A stretch of DNA of 64,000 nt from a virus. Lineage: Duplodnaviria > Caudoviricetes. A program made the translations under genes and the position numbers. Shown here one piece after another: positions 30,799-64,000 of this stretch (positions within the stretch are counted from its first letter, which is position 1; each line of letters starts with the position of its first letter). The notes beneath the pieces are model-generated. The model did not search any database. It was not told the origin of the DNA and saw only the letters and a list, made by a program, of their open reading frames with translations. The stretch is from positions 1 to 64,000 of the IMG/VR virus record IMGVR_UViG_2639763012_000002. One strand, given 5' to 3'.

Positions 30799-30950
30799 CT
30801 TCCTCCCCCGCCTAAAGGCGGGGGATTCCAGCGGTCGCCCGCTGGGTTTCCTGCTTCACCAACGACCGCCCCGTCCGGGAGGACTCCCGTTGAGGTCTTA
30901 CACCGTCTCCACAGGCAGACGCCGCCAGCCCGGCGGCCAGGATGTTGCGT
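30775..30950 (-). ncRNA. Predicted TnpB omega/reRNA (scaffold overlapping tnpB 3' end plus flank-derived guide)
   Basis: Inferred from established TnpB architecture; 5' boundary approximate; guide would be CCCGUCGGCACCUCCGUAUC. Confidence 0.6.
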
Positions 30951-32181
30951 GCCGCGTTCACGTCACGGTCATGCGCCGTGCCGCACTCGCACGTCCACTC
31001 GCGGACGTTGAGCGGCATCTTCGCCGTGACCGTGCCGCAGGCCCCGCACAGCTTGCTGGAGGGGAACCAGCGGTCGATCACGACGAGTTCACGCCCGTAC
31101 CAGGCGCACTTGTACTCCAGCATGGAGCGCAGTTCCGTCCACGATGCGTCCGAGATAGCGCGCGCCAGGGAATGACTCTTCAGCAGGTTGCGGACCGACA
31201 GGTCCTCGATCACGACCACTTGGTTCTCATGGACGAGTCGAGTCGACAGCTTGTGCAGGAAGTCACGACGCCGGTCGACGATCCGCGCATGGACCTTGGC
31301 CACCTTGCGCCGGGCCTTCTCCCGGTTCGCCGATCCCTTCGCCTTGCGGCACAGCTCACGCTGTGCCTTCGCCAGGCGCGCCCGGTCCCGCCGTTCATGC
31401 CGGGGATTGGCGATCTTCTCCCCGGTGGACAGGGTCACCAGCGAGGTGATGCCCGCGTCGATGCCGACCGCCGCCGTGGTGGGCCGTGCCGGGGTAATGG
31501 TGTCCTCGCACAGCAGGGACACGAACCAACGTCCGGCACTGTCGCGAGAGACGGTCACCGTCGTCGGTACCGAACCTTCGGGAAGCGGACGCGACCAACG
31601 GATATCCAACGGCTCGGCCATCTTCGCCAGCGTCAGCTTCCCGTCGCGCCACTTGAAGGCGCTGCGGGTGTACTCGGCCGACGCGCGGGACTTCTTCCGG
31701 CTCTTGTACCGGGGGTACTTCGCCCGCTTGGCGAAGAAGTTGGCGAACGCCGTCTGAAGATGTCTGAGCGCCTGCTGGAGCGGGACGGAGGACACCTCCC
31801 TCAGGAAGGCGAGTTCCTCGGTCTTCTTCCACTCCGTGAGCGCGGTCGAGGACTGCACGTAGGAGACACGGCGGTGTTCGCCGTACCACGCGCGAGTGCG
31901 CTCCTCCAGCGCCTTGTTGTACACGAGACGGACGCAGCCGAACGTGCGCGACAGCTCAGCTGCCTGCTCGTCCGTGGGGTAAAAGCGGTACCGAAAAGCC
32001 CGCTTGACCTGCTGCGTCATGCCTCACATTCTATCAACTTCCCTGTCAGCGCCGGGCGTTGGCTGTTGGCCGGTGGACGCCGGTCCGCCCTGGCGGCGAA
32101 CCGGCTTTCCCTGCCCTGCTCCGCAGGAGCTTCGTTTCCTCCCCGACCTGAAGGCCGGGGTATCCACGAAGGAAGGCGCCG
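30795..32181 (-). mobile_element. IS200/IS605-family tnpB-only (IS1341-like) element
   Basis: Right end hairpin CCCCCGCCTTTAGGCGGGGG..TCAA; left end hairpin CCCCGGCCTTCAGGTCGGGG; inferred target TCAT at 32182-32185; no tnpA, no TSD. Confidence 0.88.
30812..32020 (-). CDS. tnpB: RNA-guided endonuclease TnpB
   Basis: RAFRYRFYPT HTH, RuvC GIDAG / IEDL / DRDVNAARN all intact, Zn finger CGAC..CEC. Confidence 0.97.
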   Translation of the reverse strand: MTQQVKRAFRYRFYPTDEQAAELSRTFGCVRLVYNKALEERTRAWYGEHRRVSYVQSSTALTEWKKTEELAFLREVSSVPLQQALRHLQTAFANFFAKRAKYPRYKSRKKSRASAEYTRSAFKWRDGKLTLAKMAEPLDIRWSRPLPEGSVPTTVTVSRDSAGRWFVSLLCEDTITPARPTTAAVGIDAGITSLVTLSTGEKIANPRHERRDRARLAKAQRELCRKAKGSANREKARRKVAKVHARIVDRRRDFLHKLSTRLVHENQVVVIEDLSVRNLLKSHSLARAISDASWTELRSMLEYKCAWYGRELVVIDRWFPSSKLCGACGTVTAKMPLNVREWTCECGTAHDRDVNAARNILAAGLAASACGDGVRPQRESSRTGRSLVKQETQRATAGIPRL

Positions 32182-42274: not shown

Positions 42275-42862
42275 TTAGTGGGTCTGGTCTGCACAGTCAG
42301 TGGCGGCCAGGGGGTGATGTGCGGCACTCGGCTGGTACTGGTTGATGGCCTTGATGGCGGTGGTGATCGTGTCGGGCAGGGTGTGCCGGACCGGTACGCC
42401 GTGGAGGCCAGCGAGGTGGATCAGGTACCTGTTGCGTTCGGGGTTGGGGCAGTCCGGGGGGCAGCCGAGGACGACGCGGCGGCCGGAAGCGATGTCGTAG
42501 CCGTACTCGACGTTGGTAGTCATGCCGGGCAGGGTGCGCAGGTCGCGGGGTATCCAGAACACGATCACGTCGGCGTCGGCGCGGGCGGCGTGTTCCCACT
42601 CAACCTGATCGTCGTAGTGGGCTGCCCTGATACCGCCGCGTGACTCGGGGGTCAGCACGGTCAACTCGGGGCCGTCGTCCGGCCACTGGGCGGAGAGCTC
42701 GCGGATGGCTTCGGGACGCCAGGAGTCGACGGGGTCGCCGGCGCGGGGGGTGGGGCCGGCGATGAACACGGTTGGGCTGGCCCCGGGGGCGGGGAGGGGT
42801 TCGCGGGCCCAGATGATGCGCAGGTTCGGTGTGACGGGCCAGGGGTCGGGCAGAGGGCTCAC
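42275..42862 (-). CDS. Nucleoside 2-deoxyribosyltransferase-like (TIR-like fold) protein
   Basis: VFIAGPTP, SWR, QVEWE, ADVIVFWIPR, TTNVEYG. Confidence 0.85.
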   Translation of the reverse strand: MSPLPDPWPVTPNLRIIWAREPLPAPGASPTVFIAGPTPRAGDPVDSWRPEAIRELSAQWPDDGPELTVLTPESRGGIRAAHYDDQVEWEHAARADADVIVFWIPRDLRTLPGMTTNVEYGYDIASGRRVVLGCPPDCPNPERNRYLIHLAGLHGVPVRHTLPDTITTAIKAINQYQPSAAHHPLAATDCADQTH

Positions 42863-46606: not shown

Positions 46607-47284
46607 TCAGCTGGCCTTGGGGAGGAGACGGCGCAGGATGCGCCTGGTGGAGTCCTCGTTGGTGTCCGGGCCGTGGACGGTGCGGGCGTAGGCCACGACG
46701 TCATCCGGGTGCGTCTTGCCCATGCTGATCGCTGTCCGGACGGTGTCGGACAGGCGGCCGGACACGGTCTCGATCGGCCGGACTACGCGCTCCTTTTTGG
46801 CGGGGCGTTGCGTGGCGATGTACCGAGTGATGTTCGGGGCGAGGTCGAACCATTCGGTGTTGCCGTTGCGGTGTTGCGCGAAATGGCGGTGCAACGCCCG
46901 TTCCAGTTCGGGGCCGCCGTGCAACGCCAATAGGACGGCGTCGGAACGCAGAGCGAGGGAGCCGAGGCGGTTCTTGAGGTTGGTGGTGTAGCCGATCTTG
47001 ACTCGTCCGCCGTTGGCGATGAAGTACACGACGCTGTCGTGGACGCCGTGCAACAGGTCCTCGACCGTTGCGGTGCGGGTTGTTGCAACGAGGTCGTTGC
47101 GCACGGGGGGCGTCGCGGTGTTGCGCAACGCTGTTGCGAGTTGGTCGCGCAACACCTCGGGGATGAGAGTGAGGGCGATCTCGATGCGATGGGCGTTGCA
47201 CAGCGGGACGGGGCGGAGTGCGACGGCGTTGCGGTGGCAGGGCCGGCCGTCGTCCTCGGCGTTGCAGGTGGGTTCGGTGTTCAT
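46607..47284 (-). CDS. GIY-YIG-like (T5orf172/Mug113) domain protein
   Basis: VVYFIANGGRVKIGYTTNLKNRL..ELERALHRHFAQHRNGNTEWF. Confidence 0.85.
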   Translation of the reverse strand: MNTEPTCNAEDDGRPCHRNAVALRPVPLCNAHRIEIALTLIPEVLRDQLATALRNTATPPVRNDLVATTRTATVEDLLHGVHDSVVYFIANGGRVKIGYTTNLKNRLGSLALRSDAVLLALHGGPELERALHRHFAQHRNGNTEWFDLAPNITRYIATQRPAKKERVVRPIETVSGRLSDTVRTAISMGKTHPDDVVAYARTVHGPDTNEDSTRRILRRLLPKAS

Positions 47285-47745
47285 GGCGGGGGCCTTAGTC
47301 GAGTTCGGCTACGTCGGCGGGGTGGAAGAGGTTGTGGCCGTTGTCGTCGCGGCTGCGGGGGGTGAGGCGGCCTCGGTTGACCCAGGAGCGGACGGTGCCG
47401 GGAGAGACGCCTTTGAGCTTGGCGACCTGGGCGCCGGTGAGGAGGGGCTGGTCGTTGTCTGCTGCGACGTTGCGGGCGGCTTCCTCGACGACCTGTTCCA
47501 GATGCGACGTGTCGGCCGTTGCGGTGTTGCGGCTGCTGGGTGTTGCGGGCTCAGGCGCTGCAACGTCTTGGGGGGTGGTGTTGGGTGTTGCGACCGTTGC
47601 TGCCACGGGAGTTGCGGTGTTGCGGGGTGCACCGGGTGTTGCGATGCCTGGTGTTGCGGGCGGCGTTGCGGTGTTGCGGGTGCCGTTGCGGCGTTGCAGT
47701 GTCGCGGTGTTGCGGGCTGGCGTTGCGGGTCGGCGTTGCGATGCT
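46805..47745. repeat. Dense intragenic GTTGC(G) motif array
   Basis: About 17 copies in 47469-47740 and a dozen or more (both orientations) in 46805-47270. Confidence 0.75.
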
Positions 47746-48959
47746 TCGAGCACACGACGGTTCGCTTCCTCCCGCTCGGTGTTGATGCGCTCGATCTCGG
47801 CCTGGGCGCGGGCGTCTTCGATCTGCTCCTGCCGGCGGGCGGCGCGTTCCTCACGCTCCCGCTCGGCGGCGAGGCGGGCGGCCTCGGCGCGGGCGCGTTC
47901 CTCGGCGATGCGGCGTGCCTCCTCGGCTGCGGCCTGAGCGCGGGCCTGGGCAGCCTCGGTGTCGGCGTCCGCGGCGGCCTGGCGGGCGCGCAGTTCGGCG
48001 AGCCGGGTGGCCTCCTCTTCGTCGGCGAGGCGCCGCTGCCGTTCCGCCTCCTCGCGGCGGGCTTCCTCTTCCTCGGCGGCGCGCTTCCGCTCCTTCTCGG
48101 CGGCCTCGTCGGCGCGCCGCAGCTCCTCGTCGACGTCGCGCTTCTGGTTGGTGTGCTGGCTGGTGCGGCGCATGGCGCGCAGGCTCTGCTGGTGCGCTGC
48201 TTCGGCGCGTTCCTCGCGCTCCTGGTCAGGCAGGGCGAGGGCCTCGGCGAGGGGGAGACCGTAGCGGGCCATGCGCAGTGGCAGGACGCGTTCCGCGCTG
48301 CGCCACCACAGCCGGCCGTGCTCCTCCCGCATCCGGGCGCGGTAGACCTTCATGTCGCGGCGGCGGTCGACCACTTCGCGGTAGGTGGTGAGGCCGTGGC
48401 GGGTCTGGGCGCGCCAGATGCGGGCGGTGGCGATGGGGGCGACGAGCCACATGCGGCCGGGTGGGTATTCGGTGGCGGTTCCGGCGTTGATGTCGGCGGC
48501 GCGGGCGATGGCGTGCCGGGCGGCCTCGGCGACGAGGATGAACAGGCATGGGGTGGTGGCGTGCATGGCCATGGCCAGCATGTCGGGGTAGGCCGACCAG
48601 GCGTTGAACACTACGGTGGCGGCGGTCAGCGTCCATGCGGCGGGGCGCAGCAGGGGGAAGGGGATACGCAGCCACGTGAGGAGGAGGTCCAGGGCGACGC
48701 AGATCCCGATGCCGAAGTCGAGGCCGATGGGGAACCAGGCCGCGAACGACCCGAAGCCCTTGCGCTCGGCCAGCTCGGCGACGGCGTGGTAGGAGCCGAC
48801 GAACCCGATGCCGGCGATGACGAGGGCGCCGGCGATGACGATGCCGACGAGGGCCCACTGGCCGCGGCTCAGCTCAACGCGCGGCCGGAGGGCTTCGCGG
48901 GGCTGGGTGGCGGGGTGAGGCTGCTCCCGGGGTGGGGTGGGGGCGGCCTGGGCTTGCAT
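47295..48959 (-). CDS. DUF2637 (spread-like) membrane protein with coiled coil and C-terminal MerR/xis-type HTH
   Basis: GFVGSYHAVAELA..FPIGLD..ATVVFNA..; LLTGAQVAKLKGVSPGTVRSWVNRGRL. Confidence 0.85.
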   Translation of the reverse strand: MQAQAAPTPPREQPHPATQPREALRPRVELSRGQWALVGIVIAGALVIAGIGFVGSYHAVAELAERKGFGSFAAWFPIGLDFGIGICVALDLLLTWLRIPFPLLRPAAWTLTAATVVFNAWSAYPDMLAMAMHATTPCLFILVAEAARHAIARAADINAGTATEYPPGRMWLVAPIATARIWRAQTRHGLTTYREVVDRRRDMKVYRARMREEHGRLWWRSAERVLPLRMARYGLPLAEALALPDQEREERAEAAHQQSLRAMRRTSQHTNQKRDVDEELRRADEAAEKERKRAAEEEEARREEAERQRRLADEEEATRLAELRARQAAADADTEAAQARAQAAAEEARRIAEERARAEAARLAAEREREERAARRQEQIEDARAQAEIERINTEREEANRRVLEASQRRPATPARNTATLQRRNGTRNTATPPATPGIATPGAPRNTATPVAATVATPNTTPQDVAAPEPATPSSRNTATADTSHLEQVVEEAARNVAADNDQPLLTGAQVAKLKGVSPGTVRSWVNRGRLTPRSRDDNGHNLFHPADVAELD

Positions 48960-48998
48960 GGCAGTGGGTCCTCTCTCGGGTGGGAGTCGGGGGTCGGG

Positions 48999-49292
48999 TC
49001 AGGGGAGGAAGGCGGCGAGGGTGGTGATGCCGATCAGTTCGAGCGAGAGGTAGGCCCCGATGGCGCTGGCGGCGATGATGAGGGCCGCGATGACGGCGAC
49101 CGTGGGGTGCCCGACGATGACGTTTTCGATCAGGTTGGGGTGCCGGATGCCGTCCCGGTCGATGGGGATGAGGCCGTCGTGGGCCGCGTTGCGGTGGGCG
49201 AACATGTCGTCGTGGGCGTCGGCGTGCTCAATGTCGCCGGTGCGCAGGGGCCCGATGTAGGGGCACTGGTTGCACTGGTAGACGAGAGGCAT
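48999..49292 (-). CDS. Zn-finger membrane protein (paralog of 6531 and 60928 genes)
   Basis: YQCNQC...HRNAAHDGLIP plus C-terminal TM. Confidence 0.7.
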   Translation of the reverse strand: MPLVYQCNQCPYIGPLRTGDIEHADAHDDMFAHRNAAHDGLIPIDRDGIRHPNLIENVIVGHPTVAVIAALIIAASAIGAYLSLELIGITTLAAFLP

Positions 49293-49393
49293 GGGGCTGC
49301 TCCTGGCGGCGGGTTAGGTGAGTGCGGTGGTGGCCCAGATGGCGAGTGCCAGGGCGTGTGCGATGAGCGCGATGAGGGCGACGGTGCGGAGGC

Positions 49394-49780
49394 TCACGAG
49401 GTGGTGAGGACGAGAGCGAGGGCCACGATGGCGCCCGCGATCAGGCAGGCGAACAAGAGGAGGTCGTGCCCGGTGGGCTCGGTGCCGGTGGCGGGGCGCG
49501 TGGTGTTGAGGAGCGCGGTGCATTGAGCCGCGTGGGCCTGGGCTTGTCCGTGAGCGTTCTCGTGCCAGATGTGGTGGCGGCTGGCCGGGCAGGCGGCGCA
49601 GGACCATTCGGAGTCGGACGCCTGGTCGTCGGTGACGTTCACGACGTGGTCGCGGTCACCGAGCGCGGTGCCGGCGGCGGTGAGGTAGCGGTGGGTGGTG
49701 CTGGCCGGCGAGGGATGCGGGTCGGCGGGGCGGGGTGTGCGTCCGATGTGGAGATGGGCGCGGAGGCGGCGGCTGTTCAT
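49394..49780 (-). CDS. Zn-finger membrane protein
   Basis: RYLTAAG, WSCAAC..AQAHAAQCTA, C-terminal TM. Confidence 0.65.
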   Translation of the reverse strand: MNSRRLRAHLHIGRTPRPADPHPSPASTTHRYLTAAGTALGDRDHVVNVTDDQASDSEWSCAACPASRHHIWHENAHGQAQAHAAQCTALLNTTRPATGTEPTGHDLLLFACLIAGAIVALALVLTTS

Positions 49781-49826
49781 GGCTGCGGGGTCTCCTGACT
49801 GTGGCGATGGGGCGGAGTGGTGCGGG

Positions 49827-50609
49827 TCAGCCAGCGGTGGCGTTGGCGGCGTGGGCGCGGAGGTGGCGGATCTCCGCGCAGGGCCCGTTGGTGGCGCACC
49901 CGGATTCCCAACTGGTCTCGGGCACGGTCCGGCCGAACATGTCGCTGGCGACCTGAGCGACGATCCGGCTCATCTGCGGGTCGGAGGGCCGGCACAGGCT
50001 GGCCTGGGTTCCGACGCCGTGGCGTTGGGCGCTGAGGACGTGTTGGCGGGCCTGCTTCCCGGCCCACCTGCGGGCGTTGGGGCCGGTGTTGGCCTGCACG
50101 TGCCCGATGTCGTGGAGGGTGTTGGCGTGGCAGCGAGTGCAGTGGTAGGTGACGAGCGGCTGATCGGGCCGGTTGGGGCTCCGGGAGCCGTGGTACTCGT
50201 AGACGATGACCTGGCTGTTCCCGTCGGGGTGGGGGTGGGTGGTGAGGATGCCGCGGCCGTCCGGGTGCCAGGTGAGGTTGGGGATGTAGTCGGCCCACCC
50301 GGAGCCTTCGGGCCAGAACTCGTAGATGTGGCCCTGACGCTGGTCGAAGGTCGCGGTGCCGTCGGCGTTCTCAGCCTGGTACTGCTGCACCTGCTCAATG
50401 GGGCCGAAGTAGAGGGCGGAGTGTTCCTCCGACTCCAGGAAGATGAGGCCGTAGCCGTCGGGCCGCTTGTGCTCGTCAGCGAGGAAGGCGGTCATCTCGT
50501 CGAACCGGGGGTGGGCGGGGGTGAGGTAGCCGACGATCGGGAGCCGGTAGCGGTCGGCGCCGGTGACTCGGGCGGGGTGGGTGTCGCTGACGTAGTGGTA
50601 CGTGGTCAT
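49827..50609 (-). CDS. Hypothetical protein with C-terminal Zn-binding motifs
   Basis: 260-aa ORF; YHCTRCH..ARQH, CATNGPC. Confidence 0.7.
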   Translation of the reverse strand: MTTYHYVSDTHPARVTGADRYRLPIVGYLTPAHPRFDEMTAFLADEHKRPDGYGLIFLESEEHSALYFGPIEQVQQYQAENADGTATFDQRQGHIYEFWPEGSGWADYIPNLTWHPDGRGILTTHPHPDGNSQVIVYEYHGSRSPNRPDQPLVTYHCTRCHANTLHDIGHVQANTGPNARRWAGKQARQHVLSAQRHGVGTQASLCRPSDPQMSRIVAQVASDMFGRTVPETSWESGCATNGPCAEIRHLRAHAANATAG

Positions 50610-50655
50610 GGCTGGGCCTCTCGTGGTCCTAGGGCGGATGGCGGATGGGGGCTGC

Positions 50656-51450
50656 TTATCGCTGCGGGATGCGGACGCGGCCGGACTTGGTGCGGGTGCG
50701 CACAGACAGGCGGGCGGCGATGGCCGGTGCGGTGGCGGTGATGGTGATGTCGCCGGACCTCGTGTCGGCGGTGATGCCGCACTCTGCGGTGGCGTGGGCG
50801 GCGATGTCGCCGGACTCGGTGGTGGCCCAGATGTGGCCGCTCGCGTTGAGGATGTTGATGTCGCCGGATCGGGTGTTGGCGTCGGCGATTTGGGTGTGGC
50901 CGAGGGTGATGTTGCCGAGGTGGGTTTTCGCGCTGGTGTTGGCGGCCCGCTCGATGTGGATGTGGCCGGACTGGGTGGCGGCGGTGGCGTCTGTGATCGT
51001 CCCGGCGATGGTGATGTCCGCCGAGTTGGTGCGGGCGGTGACCGAGCTGTTCTCGGGCACGGTGACGTCGATGGTGATCGGCGCCGGTTGTTGGGGCGCG
51101 GTGGCGGTGAGTGTGGCCTGGCTGCCGCCGAGGTGGATAGCGCCGTTGATGGTGTCGGCCTGGATGGTGGGCGCCCCGCTGCTGGCGGGGTTGATGATGT
51201 TCCGTGCGTGGTGGCGGGTGGCGTGGCTGTTGTTGATGGCCCTGACGATGAGCCTCGCGCCGTCCTGTCGGAGGGTGGCCGTGCGGACGATGTCGGCGGC
51301 CGGGCCCGACCGGCTGCTGGTGCGGATGGTGAGGGTGGCGCGCGTGCACTGGGGGGTGGCGCGGACGGTGATGGTGCCGGGGTGGTTGAGGAGGTGGGCG
51401 TCGATGGTGATGGGTCCGGTGGTGTTGGCGGTGAGGGTGCGGATGGTCAC
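50656..51450 (-). CDS. DUF4097-like beta-strand repeat protein
   Basis: Repeated TxSGDI motifs (TNSADI, TQSGHI, TRSGDI, TESGDI, TKSGRV). Confidence 0.85.
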   Translation of the reverse strand: MTIRTLTANTTGPITIDAHLLNHPGTITVRATPQCTRATLTIRTSSRSGPAADIVRTATLRQDGARLIVRAINNSHATRHHARNIINPASSGAPTIQADTINGAIHLGGSQATLTATAPQQPAPITIDVTVPENSSVTARTNSADITIAGTITDATAATQSGHIHIERAANTSAKTHLGNITLGHTQIADANTRSGDINILNASGHIWATTESGDIAAHATAECGITADTRSGDITITATAPAIAARLSVRTRTKSGRVRIPQR

Positions 51451-51490
51451 GGTGTCGTCTCCTGGTAGGGGCGCGGTGATGGTTGGGGGT

Positions 51491-51554
51491 TGGTGCCCTG
51501 GGCGGGTCTCGAATCCGCTGTGCTGCTCCCCTGGTTGGGGCCAGCTGCCAGGGC
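51491..51554 (-). ncRNA. 64-nt tRNA-like element (acceptor stem, T-arm, encoded CCA; no normal D/anticodon arms)
   Basis: GCCCTGG...GCGGA-TTCGAGA-CCCGC-CCAGGGC-ACCA on the minus strand. Confidence 0.65.
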
Positions 51555-52478
51555 TGGGGGCCTACTGGCCTCGGGTGGCGGCCTCGCGGGCCTGTCGGAC
51601 GTGGTCGGGCGAGTCGGGGGGTGGGGGCGGCGGGTCGCTGCCTTCGGCGGGCGCGGAGGGGTTGCTCATCTTGGTTGTTGTGTCCTGTTCTGGGTGGGGG
51701 CTGGCCGGCCGTGTGCAGGTGGGCCGGCCAGCCCCAGGGTTATCGGTTGGGGCGTCTCATCGGGGCGGAGGTGGGGGGTTGGGGCAGGCGTGCACGTCCC
51801 CGACGGGGATGGGCCGCTGGCACCCGGGGCAGGTCACGAACGGCCGCGCGGGCGGGTAGTTCGTCATCGCCGCCCCTGTGCGGTGCTGGGGTGCGGGGCG
51901 GGGATGGTCCTCGACTTGAGTACTTGGGCTCCGCAGGAGCAGGCCCACCATCCGTTGCCCACGCTGTTCGTGAAGCCGCACTTGTGGGCCACGTCAGAAC
52001 CCCTCGCTGCTCCGGTCGCAGGCGCCGCACGTGCAGGTGCGGGTCCGGCGATCAGCGCTGTAGGTCCACTTGTGCTTGTGCGCCATCAGCGGCCCCCGTT
52101 CGTGGGCCCGCTGTCCGGCTGGGGGGGCTCGCTGCGCTGGGTGGGGTCGGGGTACCAGGGGTGCGGGTCGCATTGCGGGCAGCCGCTGCTGGCGGAGCAG
52201 TTGGGGCCGTGGGTTCCGCTGGTCACCGGGTGCCTCCGATGAGGGTGGCGGCGTGGTGGCCGGCCCGGGCGCGCCCGGTGGGGGTGTAGGGCGGGATGGT
52301 GGGCGGGGTGGTGCCGGTGGGCCGCACGGGGGTGCGGCGTGTACAGGTAGCGCGTTCGCGGATACGCTGCACGGCGATCCTCCTTCTTGATCTTGCGGTT
52401 GGGTTGGGGGTCAGCGGTCCCCGCTGCCATATGGCGCTGCAATCGCCGGCAGTCGGGGGCCGTTTCTCGCGTCCGGGC

Positions 52479-52652
52479 TCAGGTGGCCGGGGACAGCTCC
52501 TCGGCGTGGACGGTGGACTCGCGGCCGTCGTCCTCGCGGATGCGGACCAGGTTGCCGTTGGCGGTGGTGACCTTGCCGGTCTCGCCGCCCTTGTGTCGGG
52601 TGGGCTGGATCGGGCTGGTGACGGTGACGCGGTCACCCGGGCTGTACGTCAT
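52479..52652 (-). CDS. Small KOW/SH3-like protein
   Basis: YSPGDRVTVT..HKGGETGKVT..VRIREDDG; AGGA RBS. Confidence 0.7.
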   Translation of the reverse strand: MTYSPGDRVTVTSPIQPTRHKGGETGKVTTANGNLVRIREDDGRESTVHAEELSPAT

Positions 52653-52731
52653 ATGACATTCCTGTTTGCTCATCAGGGTTGGGTTGGGACCAGCGGCCCG
52701 GGGCGTTCCAGCGCCCGGCGGGCCTCAGGGG

Positions 52732-52920
52732 TCAGGCCGCGAGGTGGCCTTTCACCTCGGACTCGGGGATACGGATCGCGCCTCCCGGGCCACTGTCCGG
52801 GGCGCCCGGGGTCACGAGGCGGCCGTAGCGGTACGCCTGAAGGCGTCCGATCTTGACCCATCGGTAGACGGTGGACGGGTGCACCTTGAGTCGGGCCGCC
52901 ACCTCCTTCACGCGCAGCAT
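52732..52920 (-). CDS. Excisionase-like HTH (HTH_17) protein, Cro-like position
   Basis: MLRVKEVAARLKVHPSTVYRWVKIGRLQAYR..IRIPESEV. Confidence 0.88.
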   Translation of the reverse strand: MLRVKEVAARLKVHPSTVYRWVKIGRLQAYRYGRLVTPGAPDSGPGGAIRIPESEVKGHLAA

Positions 52921-53084
52921 TTGTCGCTCCTGATCTGGTAGTTGCAGGCTTCGCGCCTGTCGCAGAGCTTAATAGCTCGCCGACCTTTTTAGCAAGCTCT
53001 TGGGGGTAGAAGTGGATCTACGCAGGTGGGAGGCTTACTCATTAAGGATCTAAGGTGGCGCCTGCCGTCACATGGAGGGGCAGC
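52921..53084. promoter_or_regulatory. AT-rich divergent control region (xis-like gene vs GntR repressor)
   Basis: Low GC; AGAGCTT...AAGCTCT inverted repeat. Confidence 0.6.
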
Positions 53085-53840
53085 ATGACTAAGAAGCAGT
53101 GGGACAGGCGTCCGGCCGCCGAACGGATCGCGGCCAGCATCCGAACAATGATCATGAGAGGAGAGGAAGGGTGGGAGCCGGCGGCACAGCTCCCGACCAC
53201 AGCAGACTTGATGGCCGAGCACGGGGTCTCCAACGTGACGATCCAGAGGGCTGTCGGCGTTCTCAAGTCGGAGGGCCTGCTGGTTGGGCGCTCCGGGAGT
53301 GGCGTCTACGTGAGGGATGAGGCGCCACACGTCATCACACCGGCGTCGTACATCTCGCCGGAACCCGACAGCGCTGCGGACCGCTGGAAAATCAGCGCCT
53401 CTCACCGCGGCCGAGAGACCAACCGCGTCCTGGCAGCCGGGGAGATCGTCGCCCCCAAGCGGGTCGCCGAGGCGTTGGGCGAGGAGACGGTGATCCGCCG
53501 CAAGCGCCTGGGGTTGCTCGATGGGGAGCCTGCGGAGGTGACCTACTCGTACTACCCCGCCTCATGGGCGCGGGGGACAGAGCTTGCGCAGCGGAGGAAG
53601 ATCCGCGGCGGATCGCCACGGGTCCTCGCCGAGCTGGGGCACCGCTTGGCACCTCCTCAGGTGGATGAGGTTTCCGCGAGGTGGGCGACGCCTGAGGAGT
53701 ACGAGCTGCTCCAACTCCCTGGCGATGTACCGGTTTTCGACGTGTTCCGCATGGTGCCCGACAGCGAGGGGGTGGCGGTTGAGGTCACCGAGCTGATTAA
53801 GCCTGGGCACATTTTCAAGCTGGGGTACCGCGTGTCCTGA
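53085..53840 (+). CDS. GntR/HutC (UTRA) repressor, KorSA-like
   Basis: LPTTADLMAEHGVSNVTIQRAVGVLKSEGLLVGRSGSGVYV plus UTRA domain. Confidence 0.92.
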   Translation: MTKKQWDRRPAAERIAASIRTMIMRGEEGWEPAAQLPTTADLMAEHGVSNVTIQRAVGVLKSEGLLVGRSGSGVYVRDEAPHVITPASYISPEPDSAADRWKISASHRGRETNRVLAAGEIVAPKRVAEALGEETVIRRKRLGLLDGEPAEVTYSYYPASWARGTELAQRRKIRGGSPRVLAELGHRLAPPQVDEVSARWATPEEYELLQLPGDVPVFDVFRMVPDSEGVAVEVTELIKPGHIFKLGYRVS

Positions 53841-53882
53841 CCTGCGAGGCCAGCCTCAACAGGCACACAACAAACGCAAAGC

Positions 53883-53911
53883 TTGCCGCAATTTCTATTA
53901 TGCTTTACGGT
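53883..53911 (+). promoter_or_regulatory. Sigma70-type promoter of the rightward early operon
   Basis: TTGCCG-17-TACGGT in an AT-rich intergenic region. Confidence 0.5.
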
Positions 53912-54036
53912 GTTACTCAGTGCCACGCAGTGAACGCGTAAAGACCCCCAGGGCGCCGCAGTGGCGACATCCTGAGGGCCGGCACCAGCGGACTGCCATC
54001 CGCTGATCAATGAGTCCCTGCTGGAAGGACTACGCA

Positions 54037-54789
54037 ATGAGCGTAGCAACGCCGATGCCGCCTGCCCGTGTGCAGGCTGAGCACGCCCGCCCCACCCCGG
54101 CCGCCGAGGCTGACGGCTGGTGGCCCGCCGGCCATCCGCACCCCGCGTGGTGTGCGCGTGACGAGCATGACGACACCGAGCCGGCCATGTACTCCTGTGT
54201 GGGTGACTCCGCCCGTACGGACCTGTCTCTCCCTCAGCATCAGGCCGTTGCTGGCATGGGCCTGTGGCTCCAGGTTGAGGTGCAGCAGCATGTGGCTGAT
54301 GAGGCGCCGACGGTCCACGTGATGGCGGGGGACCTGGCTGAGCAGGAGCGTGTGTTGACAGTGGATGAGGCTGAGGCGCATGCGCGGGATCTGCTGGAGG
54401 CGGTGCGCGCGGTGCGGGCCGAGTCCGGGGCGTGCTTCGGAGCGTCCGTGGCTGCTGTCTCGGTGCCGGCGTGGTCGCCGGGGCCAGGTGTGGCGGTGGA
54501 GTGGGGTGTGCGTTTGCCGGACATTGGTGGTGAGCCGGCTGAGGTGGATGTGCGGGATAACCTGGCGGACGCCTTGGCGGCGTTGGGGCGGTACTCGTCG
54601 GTGGTGACGGGCGTGGCGCTGGTGTGGCGTGCGGTGCAGCTCGGCGAGTGGGTGGTGGCTGCTGAGGCGGGGGGGAGCCTGGCGCCTGCTGTGGCTGACG
54701 GGAACTGCTCGGTGACGCACGGCCGTTCGCAGGGTGAGGGCTACAGCACCCACGGTGAGGCCGTGGCGCAGAATGGGGGCAGGGCGTGA
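54037..54789 (+). CDS. Hypothetical protein (DUF6907-like)
   Basis: HPAWCARDEH..LTVDEAEAHARDLL; AAGGA RBS. Confidence 0.6.
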   Translation: MSVATPMPPARVQAEHARPTPAAEADGWWPAGHPHPAWCARDEHDDTEPAMYSCVGDSARTDLSLPQHQAVAGMGLWLQVEVQQHVADEAPTVHVMAGDLAEQERVLTVDEAEAHARDLLEAVRAVRAESGACFGASVAAVSVPAWSPGPGVAVEWGVRLPDIGGEPAEVDVRDNLADALAALGRYSSVVTGVALVWRAVQLGEWVVAAEAGGSLAPAVADGNCSVTHGRSQGEGYSTHGEAVAQNGGRA

Positions 54790-55511
54790 CCGAGCGGAGT
54801 GTGGTTGAGCACGCACTGACGGTCTACTACGACAGCGCCGAGATGGCGCGGCGGGTCCTCGCACAGCACGACGAGGCTGAGGTCGCCCGCCTGCGGGGCG
54901 CGTTGTCGGACGCGGCGGACCAAGTTGCGGGGTTGGAGTCCGATCTGGGGGGCGAGTCCGCCGAGGTCACCCGGCTGCGGGCCCGCGTTGAGGAGCTGGT
55001 GCGGCAGCGGGATGACGCGCTGGTGGGGATCGTCACGGCCAAGGCCGATGACGAGTTGGGGCCGGTGACTCCGCTCCGCTGGGGCCTGGGCGATGTGGAG
55101 GCGGACGACGACGGCAACCTGATGATCCTCATGTCCGGGCCCGACCGCGAGCCGTACATGCTGGAGCTGGACGCCGAGCGCGCCGCCGCGCTGCGCGACG
55201 AGCTGCCGGTCGCCGGCCCGGCCAGCGGAGGCTACCCGCCGGCCCTGCCCTGGGCGGCCTGGCTGGACGCCGACGACCTGTCCGCGCTGCTGGACGCCGT
55301 ATCCGACGTGGTGGTGCCGCATGCGCCGGCCGGCGAGCGGCTGACCGCGCTGGAGGAGGTGCTGGCCATGTACCGGCTGATCGCCGAGGTCGACCACGCC
55401 CAGGCGGTCGTATCCGGGCCCGGTCCGGATAGTGACGGGGACGTGTTGGTGGCGGTGCTGGACGCCCACGGCGTCGCCGACATCCCGGTCAGGGGTGACG
55501 GCCGTGGCTAA
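54786..55511 (+). CDS. Coiled-coil hypothetical protein
   Basis: GTGA-coupled; EVARLR/EVTRLR coiled coil. Confidence 0.7.
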   Translation: MTERSVVEHALTVYYDSAEMARRVLAQHDEAEVARLRGALSDAADQVAGLESDLGGESAEVTRLRARVEELVRQRDDALVGIVTAKADDELGPVTPLRWGLGDVEADDDGNLMILMSGPDREPYMLELDAERAAALRDELPVAGPASGGYPPALPWAAWLDADDLSALLDAVSDVVVPHAPAGERLTALEEVLAMYRLIAEVDHAQAVVSGPGPDSDGDVLVAVLDAHGVADIPVRGDGRG

Positions 55512-55785
55512 CCGGACGCCGATGAGTGCCCGCGCGACGCTGGAGGTCATGGTCCGCACGGGCCGGGGCCAGATGACGGTCTGGTCTCCGACCGAGGTCA
55601 AGCAGGCGCTCGACCGCTACCGGGCTGAGGCGCGGGCCGACGTGCTGGTCGAGCAGGCCGACGAGATGGTGGACGCCTGCCCGGCGCACGGGGAGGCCGA
55701 GGAGGCGTGGACGGTGTGCCACTGCGAGGTCGCCGACGAGATGCGGCGCCTCGCCGACCTGATGCGTCCGGGAGGTGACCGGTGA
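55504..55785 (+). CDS. Hypothetical protein
   Basis: CPAHG..CHCEVA motif; coupled to DUF5131 gene. Confidence 0.6.
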   Translation: MANRTPMSARATLEVMVRTGRGQMTVWSPTEVKQALDRYRAEARADVLVEQADEMVDACPAHGEAEEAWTVCHCEVADEMRRLADLMRPGGDR

Positions 55786-56852
55786 GCGCGACGACCAAGA
55801 TCGAATGGACGGACGCTACATGGAACCCGGTGACGGGCTACACGAAAGTCTCCCCAGGGTGCGACAACTGCTACGCGGAGACGCTGGCGGAGCGCTTCCG
55901 GGGCACCGGCGGCCACTACTTCGAGCAGGGCTTCGACGTGACATTGCGGCCGGAAAAGCTGCTGGAGCCGCTGCGGTGGCGGAAGCCGCGCCGGGTGTTT
56001 GTCAATTCGATGAGCGATCTCTTCCATGCCTCGGTGCCGGACGAGTATGTGGCGCGGGTGTGGGCGGTGATGGCCCTGGCCCCGCAGCACACATTCCAGG
56101 TGCTGACGAAGCGGCACGGGCGGCTGCGGGCGCTGCTCAGCAGCCCCCAGTTCCGGGAGCTGTGCGAGGCAGAGTGGAACTGGTTGGTGGGCGACGAGTC
56201 CACTCCGATGCCGCAGTACCGGCGTGACGCGTTCATGCGGCAGTGGTGGAGCGAGTTCTCCAGGCCGTTGCGCAACGTCTGGTTGGGCGTCTCTGCGGAG
56301 GACCAGGAGCGCGCCGATCTGCGGGTGCCGGCCCTGTTGGAAACGCCGGCTGCTGTGCGGTTCCTGTCCTGTGAACCACTCCTCGGGCCGATCGACCTCG
56401 AAGGGCCGCTGGACGGGCCCGGGACCCGCCGGCAGTTGACGTACTGGCTGACGGGACGCCCCGGGGTCGGGGCGCCGAGCCCGACGCTCAGCGGTGTGGA
56501 CATGCGGCCCCTGACGGTGGGGCCGCGCCTTGACTGGGTGATTGCTGGGGGTGAGTCCGGGCGCGGTGCGCGTCCGATGCACCCCGACTGGGCCCGCCGG
56601 CTGCGGGACCAGTGCCAGCAGGCGGGCGTGCCGTTCCTGTTCAAGCAGTGGGGCGAGTACGTGCCGACTGGCTACCTGGTGATCGGTGGCACGGGCAGCG
56701 GCACGCTGGCCTTCAAGGACCCGGTGGACGAGTTGGGCCACCGGGTGGAGGTGCGGCGCGTGGGGAAGGGGCGCGCTGGCCGTGAGTTGGATGGACGGGT
56801 CTGGGACGAGTTCCCGACCCCGAGCCGGGCGCGCGGGGGTGAGGCGTCGTGA
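55782..56852 (+). CDS. DUF5131 (phage Gp37/Gp68) family protein
   Basis: TKIEWTDATWNPVTG..SPGCDNCYA, FVNSMSDLFH, QVLTKR, FLSCEPLLG, GGESG, FLFKQWG. Confidence 0.95.
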   Translation: MSATTKIEWTDATWNPVTGYTKVSPGCDNCYAETLAERFRGTGGHYFEQGFDVTLRPEKLLEPLRWRKPRRVFVNSMSDLFHASVPDEYVARVWAVMALAPQHTFQVLTKRHGRLRALLSSPQFRELCEAEWNWLVGDESTPMPQYRRDAFMRQWWSEFSRPLRNVWLGVSAEDQERADLRVPALLETPAAVRFLSCEPLLGPIDLEGPLDGPGTRRQLTYWLTGRPGVGAPSPTLSGVDMRPLTVGPRLDWVIAGGESGRGARPMHPDWARRLRDQCQQAGVPFLFKQWGEYVPTGYLVIGGTGSGTLAFKDPVDELGHRVEVRRVGKGRAGRELDGRVWDEFPTPSRARGGEAS

Positions 56853-57568
56853 GCGTGGAAACCCTCACTGCCGAGCTGCCGGCCGATGTGGAGGCCCTGC
56901 GGGAGCTGTGTCTGGCGCAGCGGGAGCAGCTGCGGCGGCTGGAGCGGGACGCGTTGACGGGGCTGCTGCGGCGTGAGCCCTGGCACGACCGCGCGGAGGC
57001 GTGGCTGGCCGATCCGGAGACCGGCCCGTGGGCGCTGGCATTCCTGGATCTGGACGGGTTCAAGCCGGTCAACGACCGGCTGGGGCACGCGGCCGGCGAC
57101 GAGCTGCTGCGCGCCATCGGTGGCCGCCTCTCCGCGTGGGCCGAGCGGGCGGGCGCTCTGGTTGGCCGGCTGGGCGGCGACGAGTTCGCCGCGCTGTGGC
57201 CGTCTGCCGGGCCGGAGGCGGCCCGAGTGGGGGCGGCCGAGGTGGCGCGGCGCATCGCCGTCCCGGTGCTGCTGACCGGGGACGGGCTGCCGCCTGCTGT
57301 GCGCGGCGCCCAGGTACGGGTGACGGCCTCGGTCGGCGTTGTTCGGCAGGCGGACCATCCGGACGCTGGGCTGGGCGAGTTGCTGGGGCTGGCCGACGCG
57401 GCGATGTACCGGGCCAAGGAGGCCGGCGAGGCCGGCGCTCCGGGGCCCCGGGTGTGGCTGGCCGACCCGGACGTCGCCGCATGGCGCGAGCGGGCTGCCT
57501 GCCAGCGGCCGGCTGGTGAGCGGCGGGCGGGACGGCCCTACCCAGCCCCCACCACCCCGCCCGAATAA
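56849..57568 (+). CDS. Diguanylate cyclase (stand-alone GGDEF)
   Basis: DALTGL, DLDGFKPVNDRLGHAAGDELL, GRLGGDEF, ADAAMYRAK. Confidence 0.93.
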   Translation: MSVETLTAELPADVEALRELCLAQREQLRRLERDALTGLLRREPWHDRAEAWLADPETGPWALAFLDLDGFKPVNDRLGHAAGDELLRAIGGRLSAWAERAGALVGRLGGDEFAALWPSAGPEAARVGAAEVARRIAVPVLLTGDGLPPAVRGAQVRVTASVGVVRQADHPDAGLGELLGLADAAMYRAKEAGEAGAPGPRVWLADPDVAAWRERAACQRPAGERRAGRPYPAPTTPPE

Positions 57569-57900
57569 CCACTGGGGACGGCCACCGCGCCGCCCCCACC
57601 TCTCCCACGCCAGGGCCCTGGCCGCGCACACCTGCGTCTGGCCGGGGCCCTGGCCCACCCATGCCTCACACACCCCCAACGCCCTGCCCGGGGCGGCTGG
57701 TTGAGCTGGCGCGGCGCGCTGGCGGGTCGGCGGTTTTCACGCGCTCCTGTGAACCGTCGCGCCGCCCTCGTGCGCCCGTGCCGCCGCTCCCACCCCCCGG
57801 GTCGGCCTGACCGGAGAACTACCGTGCCCCCGCACAAGAACCACCCCACCCACGACCGCCGCCAGGCACAGGCCGGAGCGTCCCGCCAGGCGGTGTCCCG

Positions 57901-59421
57901 GTGAGCATCGAGGCGCTGAACTACGCCGTGAGAGTCCGGGTAGGCGACCTGACGGCGAAATTTGTTCTCGGCCGTCTGGCCGACCGCGCTGACGAGCGCT
58001 ACTCCTGCTACCCCTCGGTCCCGCTGCTGGCCGCCGAGGCCGAGAAATCACCGCGCGTCATCCAGCGGGCGCTGGCCACGCTCCGCACGTTGGGTCTGGT
58101 CTCCGACCGTGTGACCATGCGCGCCGACGGCAGCCAAGGGGCGAACAGGTACTACCTGCACGGCCCTTGGGACGACTACGGCGGCACTGGGACGCCGTTC
58201 CCGGAGATCGTGACGCCCAAGGAGGCGCGGGCCGCGCGGTGGGCTCAGGCGCCAGCTGAGGGCGAGTTCCGGGCTGGTACGGCGGCGGCCGTCGCCGAGG
58301 ACGGGGACGAGGAGGCCGCCGCCGAAGTGCGGCGGCGCGTGGCCGAGGCGGCGCAGGCCGGACAGGAACGCCTCGAAGCGCGACGCGAGAAGGCAAGGAA
58401 AGCGGCCGCGGCAGCCCACGCGAAATCGCAGGTCAGCGACATTTCCGCAGGTGGGGATGGGGTGACGTCCACGTCGTCCCCCCCGGTGACGTGCACGTCG
58501 CCCCCCGGGGTGACGCCCACGTCACCCCTAGAACCATCAGTAGTAACCACCAACGAGGAACCCTCTCCCGTCCGTCCGTCTCGTAACGGTGAGGAGTGTG
58601 CGCGTGAGGCCGGAGACGAAACGGAGGGACGGACGGGCAGCGGCTCCCCCAGGGCAGGCGGTGGCACATCCGGCGCCCGGCCGGGGCCGGGTACCCCGGG
58701 TGTGCCGACGACCGAGGCCGAGGGCGAGGACCAGGGGCAGGACGTGCCGGCGGTGCGCGGCGCCGCAGCCCGGCCAGTGCCGTCCGGCGCACCTGCCGGC
58801 CGCCGGTCGCCCGGTGTCGAGTTGCTGCTCGCGATCGGCCAGGAGCGGCCGGAGTATCTGCTGACCGGCCGGACGCTGTCGGATCAGGGCCTGATGGTCA
58901 CGGGGATGCTGGACGCCGGGTGGTCGCCGGAGTTGGTGCGGCAGATCGTGGCGGGCCGGCCGCTGCCGCCGGCGGGTGAGATCCGGGCGAGCGTGGGGGC
59001 GATCGTCGCCGCCCGGCTGCGGGATGCGGTCAGCTCTGGCCCCCCGCCCCCACCCGGGCAACACCCGTTCGGGGCCGGCTCGTTGAACGGGAATGACCAC
59101 GGCCACAGCCTCGACCACGGCGCCGGCAGTTCGGGCAGGCCCGGCAGTCCCGGGCGGCCCTGGGACACGCCCACGCCGACCGCGCCCACCTACGGCCAGC
59201 ACCTCACCCGGGTCATGTCGGAATGCGAGGGCCAGGACGGGGCGTGCGGCCGACCCGTGCGCCCCGGCTACGACCTGTGCACCGGCTGCCTGGACCTGCC
59301 CTGGTGCGAGTGCGGCGCGGCCCGCATCGACCCCGGCCGAGGCGAGGAGCGCTGCCCGGACTGCGGGGCGGCGGCCGAGGCCCTGGGCGCCGCGCTCCAC
59401 GCTCCGCACACGGCCCGCTGA
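57901..59421 (+). CDS. Phage replication initiator-like protein (N-terminal HTH_36)
   Basis: MSIEALNYA..AKFVLGRLADRADERYSCYPSVPLLAAEAE..IQRALATL..DGSQGANRYYL; C-terminal Cys clusters. Confidence 0.8.
   Translation: MSIEALNYAVRVRVGDLTAKFVLGRLADRADERYSCYPSVPLLAAEAEKSPRVIQRALATLRTLGLVSDRVTMRADGSQGANRYYLHGPWDDYGGTGTPFPEIVTPKEARAARWAQAPAEGEFRAGTAAAVAEDGDEEAAAEVRRRVAEAAQAGQERLEARREKARKAAAAAHAKSQVSDISAGGDGVTSTSSPPVTCTSPPGVTPTSPLEPSVVTTNEEPSPVRPSRNGEECAREAGDETEGRTGSGSPRAGGGTSGARPGPGTPGVPTTEAEGEDQGQDVPAVRGAAARPVPSGAPAGRRSPGVELLLAIGQERPEYLLTGRTLSDQGLMVTGMLDAGWSPELVRQIVAGRPLPPAGEIRASVGAIVAARLRDAVSSGPPPPPGQHPFGAGSLNGNDHGHSLDHGAGSSGRPGSPGRPWDTPTPTAPTYGQHLTRVMSECEGQDGACGRPVRPGYDLCTGCLDLPWCECGAARIDPGRGEERCPDCGAAAEALGAALHAPHTAR
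58461..58529. repeat. Three 24-bp-period palindromic iterons inside the initiator gene (putative origin)
   Basis: GGTGACG-N4-CGTC(G/A) units at 58461, 58485, 58509. Confidence 0.75.
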
Positions 59422-62760: not shown

Positions 62761-62805
62761 TGTAACGTGCCCCCGTTGACTTTCGTAACGGGGGCACGTT
62801 ACATT
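62761..62805 (+). promoter_or_regulatory. Promoter overlapped by a perfect 17-bp inverted repeat (double operator)
   Basis: tgtaacgtgcccccgtt-N9-aacgggggcacgttaca; TTGACT-18-TACATT. Confidence 0.8.
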
Positions 62806-62842
62806 CGTGGTGTTGGGCCACCCACTCACCATGGAGGACACC

Positions 62843-63469
62843 ATGACCGACGCCCCCCTCGCCACCGTCACCGTCGCCGACTGGGACGCCGCCGAGGTGT
62901 ACCTCGCCGAGCACACCAGCGACGCCACCTACACCCTCACCGAGCTGACCGCCGCCCACGACGCCGACCTCCACGAGATCCGCCTCGACCCCGAAACCCG
63001 CACCATCTGGTGGGCCTACGACAACGGCCCCGTCCGCGGCAAGGGCTGGACCGTCGACCACCTCACCCCGGCGGCCGCCGCCGAACAGGCCGAGCCCATC
63101 ATCGACACGACCCAGGACCGCATGGGCGACCCCGAGGGGTACGCCGGGCAGATCCACCGCCTCGACGACGACCAGGCGCTCCTCGACGAGTACACCGAGA
63201 TCCTGCGCCTGACCCTCCCTGCCGACCCGCAGGCCGCCCGCGCCGAGATCCGCACCCGCCGTGCTCTCGCCGACGCCTTGTGGCAGCGCGCCGACGCCGA
63301 GCTGGTCCGCAGCCTCGCCGGCAGCGACCGGGGCGGCAAGGCCGCCGCCGCACGGACCCTGGGCATCACCCGGATGCAGGTCACCCGTCTCATCAGCGAC
63401 GACGACAGGCGGCGGGACGCCCTCACCCAGGCCGTGCGGGAGGCGGAAGCCGACTACCCCGACCGCTGA
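62843..63469 (+). CDS. Acidic N-terminal domain fused to a C-terminal HTH
   Basis: GGAGG RBS; D/E-rich first ~125 aa; GGKAAAARTLGITRMQVTRLI HTH. Confidence 0.8.
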   Translation: MTDAPLATVTVADWDAAEVYLAEHTSDATYTLTELTAAHDADLHEIRLDPETRTIWWAYDNGPVRGKGWTVDHLTPAAAAEQAEPIIDTTQDRMGDPEGYAGQIHRLDDDQALLDEYTEILRLTLPADPQAARAEIRTRRALADALWQRADAELVRSLAGSDRGGKAAAARTLGITRMQVTRLISDDDRRRDALTQAVREAEADYPDR

Positions 63470-63500
63470 TCGACCCAGCCGCGCCGCGCTATAGTGCTAA

Positions 63501-63529
63501 CCTCATCGCCCCTACGAGGGGACCCCTGC
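63501..63529 (+). CRISPR. Solitary type I-B-like repeat (not an array)
   Basis: CCTCATCGCCCCTACGAGGGG with CCCCT-ACG-AGGGG hairpin, 6 nt after a TATAGT -10 box; 3' handle region diverged (ACCCCTGC). Confidence 0.55.
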
Positions 63530-63579
63530 CAGCCAGCCGTGGCCCATGGTGCGCCACGGCCGACCGACGGACGGCCCTC

Positions 63580-64000
63580 GTGCACTACGGCGACCGCGAC
63601 GGATACGGCCAGTACGGCATCCTGGACGACGACGGCGAGCGGGTGCTGTGCCACGAGTGCGGGCGGCGCTACCGCCAGCTCCCGTACCACATCAATCGGG
63701 CGCACGGGATGACGGCAGTCGAGTACCGGGCAGCCCACGGCCTGAGCGTGACGCAGCCGTTGGCGTCCGACAGCCTGACGGCGACGCAGCGCGCCAACTC
63801 CACCAGGGTCTACGCCCAACGCCCCGACATCCGGGCCATGCTCGCCGACGCGCTGAGCCGGGGCTGCTCCGCGGCGGCGTCCCGGGCTGCGCAGGCCGCC
63901 GCGCCGGACTCCCTCGCCCGTGCCGCCGAGCGGCATCGCCGCCGGGTCGCATCTGCTCGCCTGGCGGAGCGCGAGCGGGCCGCGAAGCGGCGCAGGCTCG
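63580..64000 (+). CDS. Ros/MucR-like Zn-finger protein, truncated by the window end
   Basis: Manual translation: DGERVLCHECGRRYRQLPYHINRAHGMTAVEYRAAHGL..PLAS. Confidence 0.75.
   Translation, partial: MHYGDRDGYGQYGILDDDGERVLCHECGRRYRQLPYHINRAHGMTAVEYRAAHGLSVTQPLASDSLTATQRANSTRVYAQRPDIRAMLADALSRGCSAAASRAAQAAAPDSLARAAERHRRRVASARLAERERAAKRRRL

Follow-up and report, generated by a model that had tools for sequence, protein, structure and literature searches.

Why would a prophage keep, in the short gap ahead of one of its own genes, a lone fragment of a bacterial CRISPR array? The question arises near the end of a 64,000-nucleotide (nt) stretch of Caudoviricetes DNA (positions 1 to 64,000 of IMG/VR record IMGVR_UViG_2639763012_000002, hereafter the window), where a 21-nt sequence, CCTCATCGCCCCTACGAGGGG, occupies positions 63501-63521 of the plus strand. 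The original prediction, made from the letters of the window, saw in this sequence a solitary repeat unit (SRU) transcribed as an RNA anti-CRISPR (Racr)-like RNA, acting either as a decoy for the protein Cas6 or as a Cas6-responsive leader of the gene downstream. Our analysis shows that the unit genuinely reproduces the 5' part of a type I-B repeat together with its hairpin and lacks the 3' handle, and leads us to favor, tentatively and with a probability of about 0.45, a phage-borne Racr-like decoy that would mimic the Cas6-bound part of this repeat.

The solitary unit and the repeat it resembles

The coordinates predicted for the unit, for a TATAGT box before it, for both arms of an 8-base-pair (bp) stem behind it, and for the start of a MucR-like gene were all correct when read against the window sequence. 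Within the unit, a stem (63509-63513 paired with 63517-63521) encloses a 3-nt loop (63514-63516). The actinobacterial type I-B repeat that the original prediction had invoked proved to be real and sits in arrays of many actinobacterial genomes. A scan of one genome per species with the 21-mer, leaving the loop base free, returned at least 119 matching stretches in genome contigs, most of them arrays with a period of 63-71 nt; the genera with such arrays include, among the matches listed, Streptomyces, Nonomuraea, Nocardiopsis, Streptosporangium, and Actinomadura. The four commonest 31-mers (97, 97, 73, and 60 copies among these listed matches) all contain GTCCTCATCGCCCCTACGAGGGGTCGCAAC, and the unit is identical at 21/21 bases to positions 3-23 of the commonest 30-nt repeat variant, a segment that comprises the 5' tag and the hairpin. 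Beyond this segment, positions 1-2 read AA in the unit and GT in the array repeat (0/2 bases alike), and the 3' handle, which in an array repeat is the future 5' handle of the CRISPR RNA (crRNA), has been replaced as predicted, positions 63522-63528 of the plus strand reading ACCCCTG, unrelated to TCGCAAC (2/7 bases alike). Whether taken as 30 nt or as a 64-nt RNA (63501-63564), the unit has a predicted fold with a 5-bp stem and a 3-nt loop identical to those of the array repeat, and it matches a known CRISPR repeat in sequence as well as in predicted structure; the 30-nt fold itself is ordinary for its composition (z = -0.85). The window holds one match to the 21-mer against 0.01 expected at up to 3 mismatches, and 0 of 60 composition-matched shuffled motifs produced an exact or 1-mismatch match in the whole 7.74-Mb genome.

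The type I-B label of the 30-nt repeat was checked at one array, that of S. triticirhizae, which follows genes for Cas6, Cas7 (Cst2/DevR, I-B), Cas5b, Cas3, Cas4, and Cas1b, the Cas1b scoring 312.6 bits against the HMARI model, over its cut-off. When arrays are oriented so that the repeat reads GTCCTCATC, a conserved leader end (CTTTAC...GGGG) is found ahead of the first repeat, and the unit on the plus strand of the window therefore lies in the transcribed sense.

The unit stands alone. There is no other full or partial repeat within about 100 bp, and local alignment of the 30-nt repeat and of the host's own repeat (described below) to 150 nt on each side, on both strands, found no second repeat-like stretch (shuffle p = 0.37-1.0). 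No direct-repeat family covers the site and the window contains no array; Rfam models at their gathering thresholds gave 0 matches in the window, and the unit together with its own 3' flank, used as a pattern, had 0 matches in metagenome contigs. It is also intergenic, within a prophage, and away from cas genes: a gap of 110 nt separates the stop codon (63469) of the gene for a 220-amino-acid protein from the GTG start codon at 63580, and in it the unit lies 31 nt after the former and 59 nt before the latter, on the same strand, while the cas genes are on another contig, about 8 contigs from the prophage. Among 401 genomes, that of the window and 400 others sampled from the same genus, only the window's genome has a lone copy of the core outside any array. 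Among GenBank phages, a search with the 30-nt repeat returned nothing beyond matches of 16 nt in Salinibacter phages, which are at chance level (E = 8); among plasmids, it returned one that carries an array and two others with a single copy each.

Five nucleotides upstream of the unit, TATAGT (63490-63495, plus strand) resembles a near-consensus -10 box placed directly ahead of it, which may act as a promoter with a putative start at about 63501-63503. This hexamer occurs once in the 64 kb, both strands considered, where 1.02 copies are expected. Behind the unit, a second hairpin with arms GCCGTGGC (63536-63543) and GCCACGGC (63553-63560) forms, on the plus strand, a perfect, G+C-rich 8-bp stem around a 9-nt loop; this inverted repeat was found once in the window against 0.01 expected. 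It could be the 3' end or stabilizer of a short RNA, an attenuator, or an operator. Two more specific roles were discarded, that of a classical terminator because no T-run follows and that of a repeated operator because the 8-bp half-site is not enriched in the window (15 copies vs 13.3 expected).

A candidate Cas6 decoy and the resident system

The combination of a fully intact core (21/21) with flanks at random level (2/7 and 0/2) does not fit uniform decay. In type I systems, the part retained here corresponds to what stays bound to Cas6 after repeat cleavage. Racr RNAs are encoded on mobile elements, where SRUs often lie directly downstream of a promoter, and RacrIF1 loses its activity when the stem-loop is mutated but tolerates an altered 8-nt 5' handle, a part that is dispensable; inhibition by Racrs is due to the product that lies upstream of the Cas6 cut (PMC10651486, here and below from the available part of that report). 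Given that the Cas6-held part is the part retained, and in light of these Racr findings, a Racr-like Cas6 decoy is the simplest reading of the unit, and we put it at roughly 0.45. Such a decoy is an RNA anti-CRISPR, a known kind of phage counter-defense.

We infer transcription, Cas6 binding, and inhibition along the following lines. Transcription from TATAGT, or read-through from the upstream gene, would yield an RNA with the mimic at its 5' end followed by the stable second hairpin, either as a short RNA of roughly 60 nt ending at that hairpin or as the 5' end of the messenger RNA (mRNA) of the downstream regulator. Cas6 from an I-B system with the 30-nt repeat would bind, and perhaps cut, the mimic as if it were a repeat. 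As the 3' handle is absent, no usable crRNA 5' handle would result, and Cas6 would be titrated away from crRNA production. The decoy would then help the phage in strains that carry the mimicked I-B lineage, its effect on the divergent I-B system of the present host being uncertain.

Several features bring the unit close to the Racrs and viral SRUs described in the available part of PMC10651486: it is a single intergenic copy of a repeat on a prophage, behind a promoter-like box, with the hairpin kept and in a host with the same CRISPR subtype, and the part retained corresponds to the inhibitory part of a Racr, upstream of the Cas6 cut. The differences from the Racrs of that report weigh against a decoy. 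The match spans 21 of 30 bases, or 70% of the repeat, with no 3' handle, and is thus a partial match that stays under the full-match threshold of SRUFinder, which asks for 90% or more identity across 90% or more of the repeat. An RNA starting at 63501-63503 would also lack the 5' extension on which RacrIF1 assembles Cas7, and the repeat and Cas6 lineage mimicked is an I-B lineage other than that of the resident host.

The host genome encodes one Cas1 and one Cas6, both in an operon on contig C23 that is type I-B by NCBIfam, and has arrays of 15 and 25 repeats as well as a degenerate third array of at least 5 repeats. By sequence, the unit corresponds to the subtype of this system (I-B) but to another lineage. 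The host repeat, GTCCTCATCAACCCCGGAGGGTTCGCAAC, is 29 nt long and has the 5' tag and the 3' handle in common with the 30-nt repeat; its stem, AACCC/GGGTT with a 4-nt loop, is unlike that of the 30-nt repeat, and about 15 of the 21 positions of the unit core are alike by eye. The sole host Cas6 is 36-38% identical to the Cas6 proteins of the mimicked lineage. In a comparison with five other genomes (G401 to G405), Cas6 from G401 and from contig C4 of G403, where arrays of the 30-nt repeat lie beside cas6, reached 36-37% identity to host Cas6; those from G404 and G405, two genomes that hold 30-nt-repeat arrays, reached 38% and 28%; and that from G402 gave no match to the host protein. The second Cas6 of G403, on contig C27, is 67% identical to host Cas6 and goes with a 29-nt repeat showing a compensatory stem change.

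The genome G403 thus carries two I-B lineages, one with the 30-nt repeat and one with the 29-nt repeat GTCGTCATCAGCCCTGGTGGGCTCGCAAC (locus L146, contig C27, about 8866-10750), the stem of which differs from that of the host's 29-nt repeat by one compensatory pair. The degenerate third array of the present host (C23:390358-390792) is made up of variant repeats, is equipped with a leader-like end of its own, and immediately precedes the I-B operon on its upstream side (cas6 at 391128-391832), with an IS630-family transposase gene nearby (locus L123, 5902-6648); it may be an array in decay or else a mini-array with a regulatory role.

Further observations count against a decoy. None of the 42 host spacer intervals (38 of normal length) targets the prophage, and none came near a full-length match anywhere else in the genome, the closest stretches being 22-27 nt long with 1-3 mismatches. 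In the genus sample, the core of the mimicked lineage is rare, present in just 10 of the 400 other genomes (nine with at least two copies; in the tenth, a single exact copy at a contig end forms part of an array whose repeats are degenerate). The TATAGT box is accompanied by no -35 hexamer that matches at 4 or more of 6 positions, and a consensus promoter scan was silent at this site. No relatives of the locus were found among same-genus genomes, IMG/VR, GenBank phages, or metagenome contigs. Finally, handle-less copies of the core recur in other genomes and are not always on an obvious mobile element, a point taken up below. A solitary unit derived from the host's own repeat lineage was also sought in the genome, and none was found at up to 4 mismatches, apart from 3 weak, chance-like matches. 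Of the Racr-like reading put forward originally, what holds is a genuine, handle-less solitary copy of an I-B repeat, located on a prophage and directly after a near-consensus -10 box; what speaks against a simple version of it is the host's only Cas6, which belongs to another lineage.

We then asked how spacers acquired by the mimicked lineage relate to these prophages, and compared 795 spacers from 30-nt-lineage arrays of other genomes, over their full length, with the present genome. At 80% identity or more there are 20 matching places, 3 of which are located in the two prophages of the genome, which make up 1.8% of it; these 3 rank 1st, 3rd, and 4th. They correspond to an S. triticirhizae spacer matching the prophage on contig C16 at 33/37 bases (C16:232010-232046), a Nonomuraea angiospora spacer matching the window at 31/37 (42520-42556), and an Acrocarpospora catenulata spacer matching at 30/36 near window position 56548, inside a DUF5131 gene. 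In both alignments inspected (33/37 and 31/37), mismatches fall mostly on every third base, as expected for homologous phage genes. These matches lend modest but real support to the view that phages with such genes probably encounter the mimicked CRISPR lineage. Also in favor of a decoy, a provirus of Actinomadura litoris carries a comparable unit poor in handle sequence, in a host with arrays of nearly the mimicked repeat (L035, below).

If active, the unit would be a type I-B RNA anti-CRISPR from an actinophage, a subtype and a host group that are not among the Racrs validated in PMC10651486 (Camara-Wilpert et al. 2023), which, in the available part of that report, belong to types I-F, I-C, I-E, and V-A. 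Our literature search found no publication on I-B or Streptomyces SRUs, and the supplementary SRU lists of PMC10651486 may already contain I-B units of Streptomyces prophages. An active unit would also represent a minimal form, with only the Cas6-held part at the 5' end of a transcript, and would show whether titration of Cas6 is sufficient against type I systems. The mismatch between the lineage mimicked and the resident one bears on the breadth of Cas6 recognition and on phage host range, and an active unit, being small, could in practice provide a genetic switch for I-B systems that are endogenous to Streptomyces.

Competing explanations

The strongest competitor, one that we regard as less likely than a decoy, is that the unit is an inert relic, either a 21-nt piece of a repeat that the phage acquired from an array through illegitimate recombination or the remainder of a phage mini-array that has collapsed, the promoter and second hairpin then serving the MucR-like gene only. 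The other solitary copies of the core matter most here. Among loci with a single exact core, two (L020 and L059) consist of a leader and one intact repeat, five keep the handle (L008, L012, L026, L036, and L117), and six are handle-less (L034, L035, L062, L116, L072, and L076), with two further handle-less copies near locus edges (L093 and L103). One of the six, L035, is the same DNA as an IMG/VR provirus contig of Actinomadura litoris (L131); the unit of this provirus, itself poor in handle sequence, comes after the stop codon of a gene, the product of which has a helix-turn-helix (HTH)-like segment at its end, and its host has arrays of a repeat almost identical to the mimicked one. Another, L034, adjoins a DDE transposase gene. 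For the remaining handle-less copies, the immediate neighbors examined were genes for an aldo/keto reductase, DeoR, an FAD oxidase, and an aspartyl protease. Handle-less copies thus also occur beside non-mobile genes in other actinobacterial genomes, which keeps a relic origin alive, and of 5 such genomes checked, 4 have no copy at up to 1 mismatch besides the solitary one. The poor fit of the host Cas6 and repeat lineage to the unit points the same way, as does the lack of locus relatives by which conservation could be demonstrated. Against a relic stand the intact core between two unrelated flanks, the exact coincidence of the piece kept with the part that Cas6 holds, the position of the window's only TATAGT next to the unit, and the targeting of phage relatives by the mimicked CRISPR lineage; nor is there a remnant of a second repeat within 150 nt.

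Two of the handle-less loci, L062 (1013-1033) and L116 (6527-6547), come from different Streptomyces species and have conserved flanks, the unit lying in both beside a DUF5707 gene. At L062 the aldo/keto reductase gene is on the other side, and that genome has no second copy of the core at up to 1 mismatch.

The unit was also compared with the forms that residual arrays take. As a single copy without neighbors it resembles a leader with a single repeat, that is, an empty or minimal array; in the two such loci (L020 and L059), however, the CTTTAC...GGGG leader end and a handle ending in CAAC, such as TCGCAAC, are present, and the unit has neither. An array remnant at a cas locus could be ruled out on the same grounds, as GCGCTATAGTGCTAA takes the place of CTTTAC...GGGG upstream and the handle is replaced. 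Phage and plasmid CRISPR mini-arrays likewise place repeat sequence on a mobile element, but they consist of at least two repeats and a spacer, which are not present at the unit.

Next in order, and improbable, is a Cas6-responsive or Cas6-exploiting leader, in which the mimic would be a cis element in the 5' untranslated region of the MucR-like gene. Binding or cutting by Cas6 would then alter mRNA stability or free the start codon, the phage either processing its mRNA with Cas6 or sensing Cas6. The layout suits such a function, with the unit 59 nt before the GTG on the same strand and no space for a further promoter past the second hairpin, and RacrIC1 is co-transcribed with a protein gene (available part of PMC10651486). 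In the minimum-free-energy fold of 63497-63582, moreover, the 3' half of the mimic is paired with CCCUCGUG, which holds the GTG. This fold is, however, no better than those of shuffled sequences (z = -0.40; 62 of 200 shuffles at least as stable), and in the 64-nt RNA the mimic hairpin is predicted to form instead; the lineage of the host Cas6 is a further difficulty. The leader that the original prediction had offered as its alternative has nothing but a non-significant fold behind it.

A narrower version, in which the mimic would be a Cas6 sensor, is less probable still. The start codon, paired with the 3' half of the mimic, would be released when Cas6 binds or cleaves, so that the phage would read I-B activity and switch its regulation accordingly. 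Were this true, a second instance would exist on the other prophage of the genome, on contig C16, a prophage with genes for a tyrosine integrase, an endolysin, and a tape measure protein. There, a possible second unit, TCTCATCGACCCTCCGAGGGG (C16:239772-239792), matches 18 of 20 specified bases, and the layout of C16:239760-239850 (L002, 1487-1577) resembles that in the window: a stop codon, TACGGT, 5 nt, the unit, a perfect 9-bp hairpin, GGAGG, and GTG. The corresponding 52-nt RNA has a good predicted fold (z = -3.24), and the fold of the whole leader is non-significant (z = -1.93). By sequence the C16 unit is also non-significant, as shuffles average 1.17 matches at 3 mismatches and 50% give at least one, and the loose pattern has 3 non-array matches in the genome, as many as its reversed control. 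A syntenic relative of the C16 locus is without the entire spacer region. The C16 unit is no more than a candidate second copy.

The remaining explanations, namely a guide-type RNA, chance, and any reading that we have not considered, together carry only a small share of the probability. A guide-type regulatory RNA resembling CreA/CreR or a viral Cracr, which would reprogram Cascade to repress cas or toxin promoters, appears very improbable. Such RNAs are repeat-derived, lie outside arrays, and engage Cas proteins, and some are known from phages and some from type I-B (bioRxiv 10.1101/2024.10.29.618823, as far as the available part of that preprint describes them). Unlike them, however, and unlike the repeat-like elements that they need on both sides of a guide to a cas or toxin promoter, the present locus has one unit, no second degenerate repeat within 150 nt (the alignments given above), and none of the required 5' handle, and when the 59 nt after the unit were compared with 1.5 kb surrounding the promoter of the host's cas6, no match exceeded 8 nt (p = 0.98-0.99). 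Without a partner repeat, a handle, or a promoter match, this reading fails. A chance likeness between an ordinary 5'-untranslated-region or terminator hairpin and a CRISPR repeat is just as remote, for while G+C-rich intergenic hairpins are common and the 30-nt fold is unexceptional, the exact 21-mer was never reached by the 60 shuffled motifs in the genome and only 0.01 matches are expected in the window.

Flanking genes and prophage setting

Upstream of the unit, the plus-strand gene at 62807-63469 encodes the 220-amino-acid protein, with a weak C-terminal HTH_8 match (E = 0.0097); a promoter-like site from the consensus promoter scan lies ahead of it (62776-62805), and the protein has no match in IMG/VR or GenBank phages. 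Downstream, the gene at 63580-65028, also on the plus strand and extending past the end of the window at 64000, starts with GTG and encodes a 482-amino-acid protein. Its N-terminus matches Pfam ROS_MUCR (6.2e-10), a MucR/Ros zinc finger, and is followed by several HTH motifs, which bears out the prediction of a MucR-like start after the second hairpin. This protein has 2 weak matches in 400 same-genus genomes and no confirmed relative in IMG/VR or metagenome contigs. Plasmid and phage matches to it cover the N-terminal domain only, and those loci are without the unit.

The window as a whole is a prophage in a Streptomyces-like genome, based on PHROGs matches with E-values of 1e-39 to 1e-109, and prophage genes flank the unit on both sides. 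A structural and lysis module spans 8733-30798 and includes, as annotated with PHROGs, an endolysin (8733-9839), the large terminase (10899-12395), the portal (15328-17184), the major head protein (17630-19666), the major tail protein (20519-21772), the tape measure protein (24230-27148), and a minor tail protein (28399-30798); the head protein is just 32-34% identical to those of known actinophages. The early or replication region that adjoins the unit (46607-59421) contains phrog_29003 (DUF2637), phrog_10724, phrog_2045 (DUF5131), a GGDEF protein, and a replication initiator. No integrase or tRNA was found near the unit; about 31 kb beyond it, at roughly 94.5 kb in window coordinates, there is a large serine-recombinase frame.

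A few features of this prophage are recorded here as observations in their own right. The gene for the GGDEF (diguanylate cyclase) domain protein (56849-57568) follows directly after the DUF5131 (Gp37/Gp68) gene. The tape measure gene holds a tandem 174-nt direct repeat (24377-24724) with copies that are 77% identical, and the tail-gene region is interrupted by an open reading frame of 402 amino acids on the minus strand (30812-32020), the N-terminus of which we take to resemble an IS200/IS605-type TnpB. Lastly, a block of about 1 kb is shared between the two otherwise unlike prophages (window about 73200-74470 and C16:227350-228835), and the 93-100% identity of the proteins it encodes suggests a recent exchange between them.

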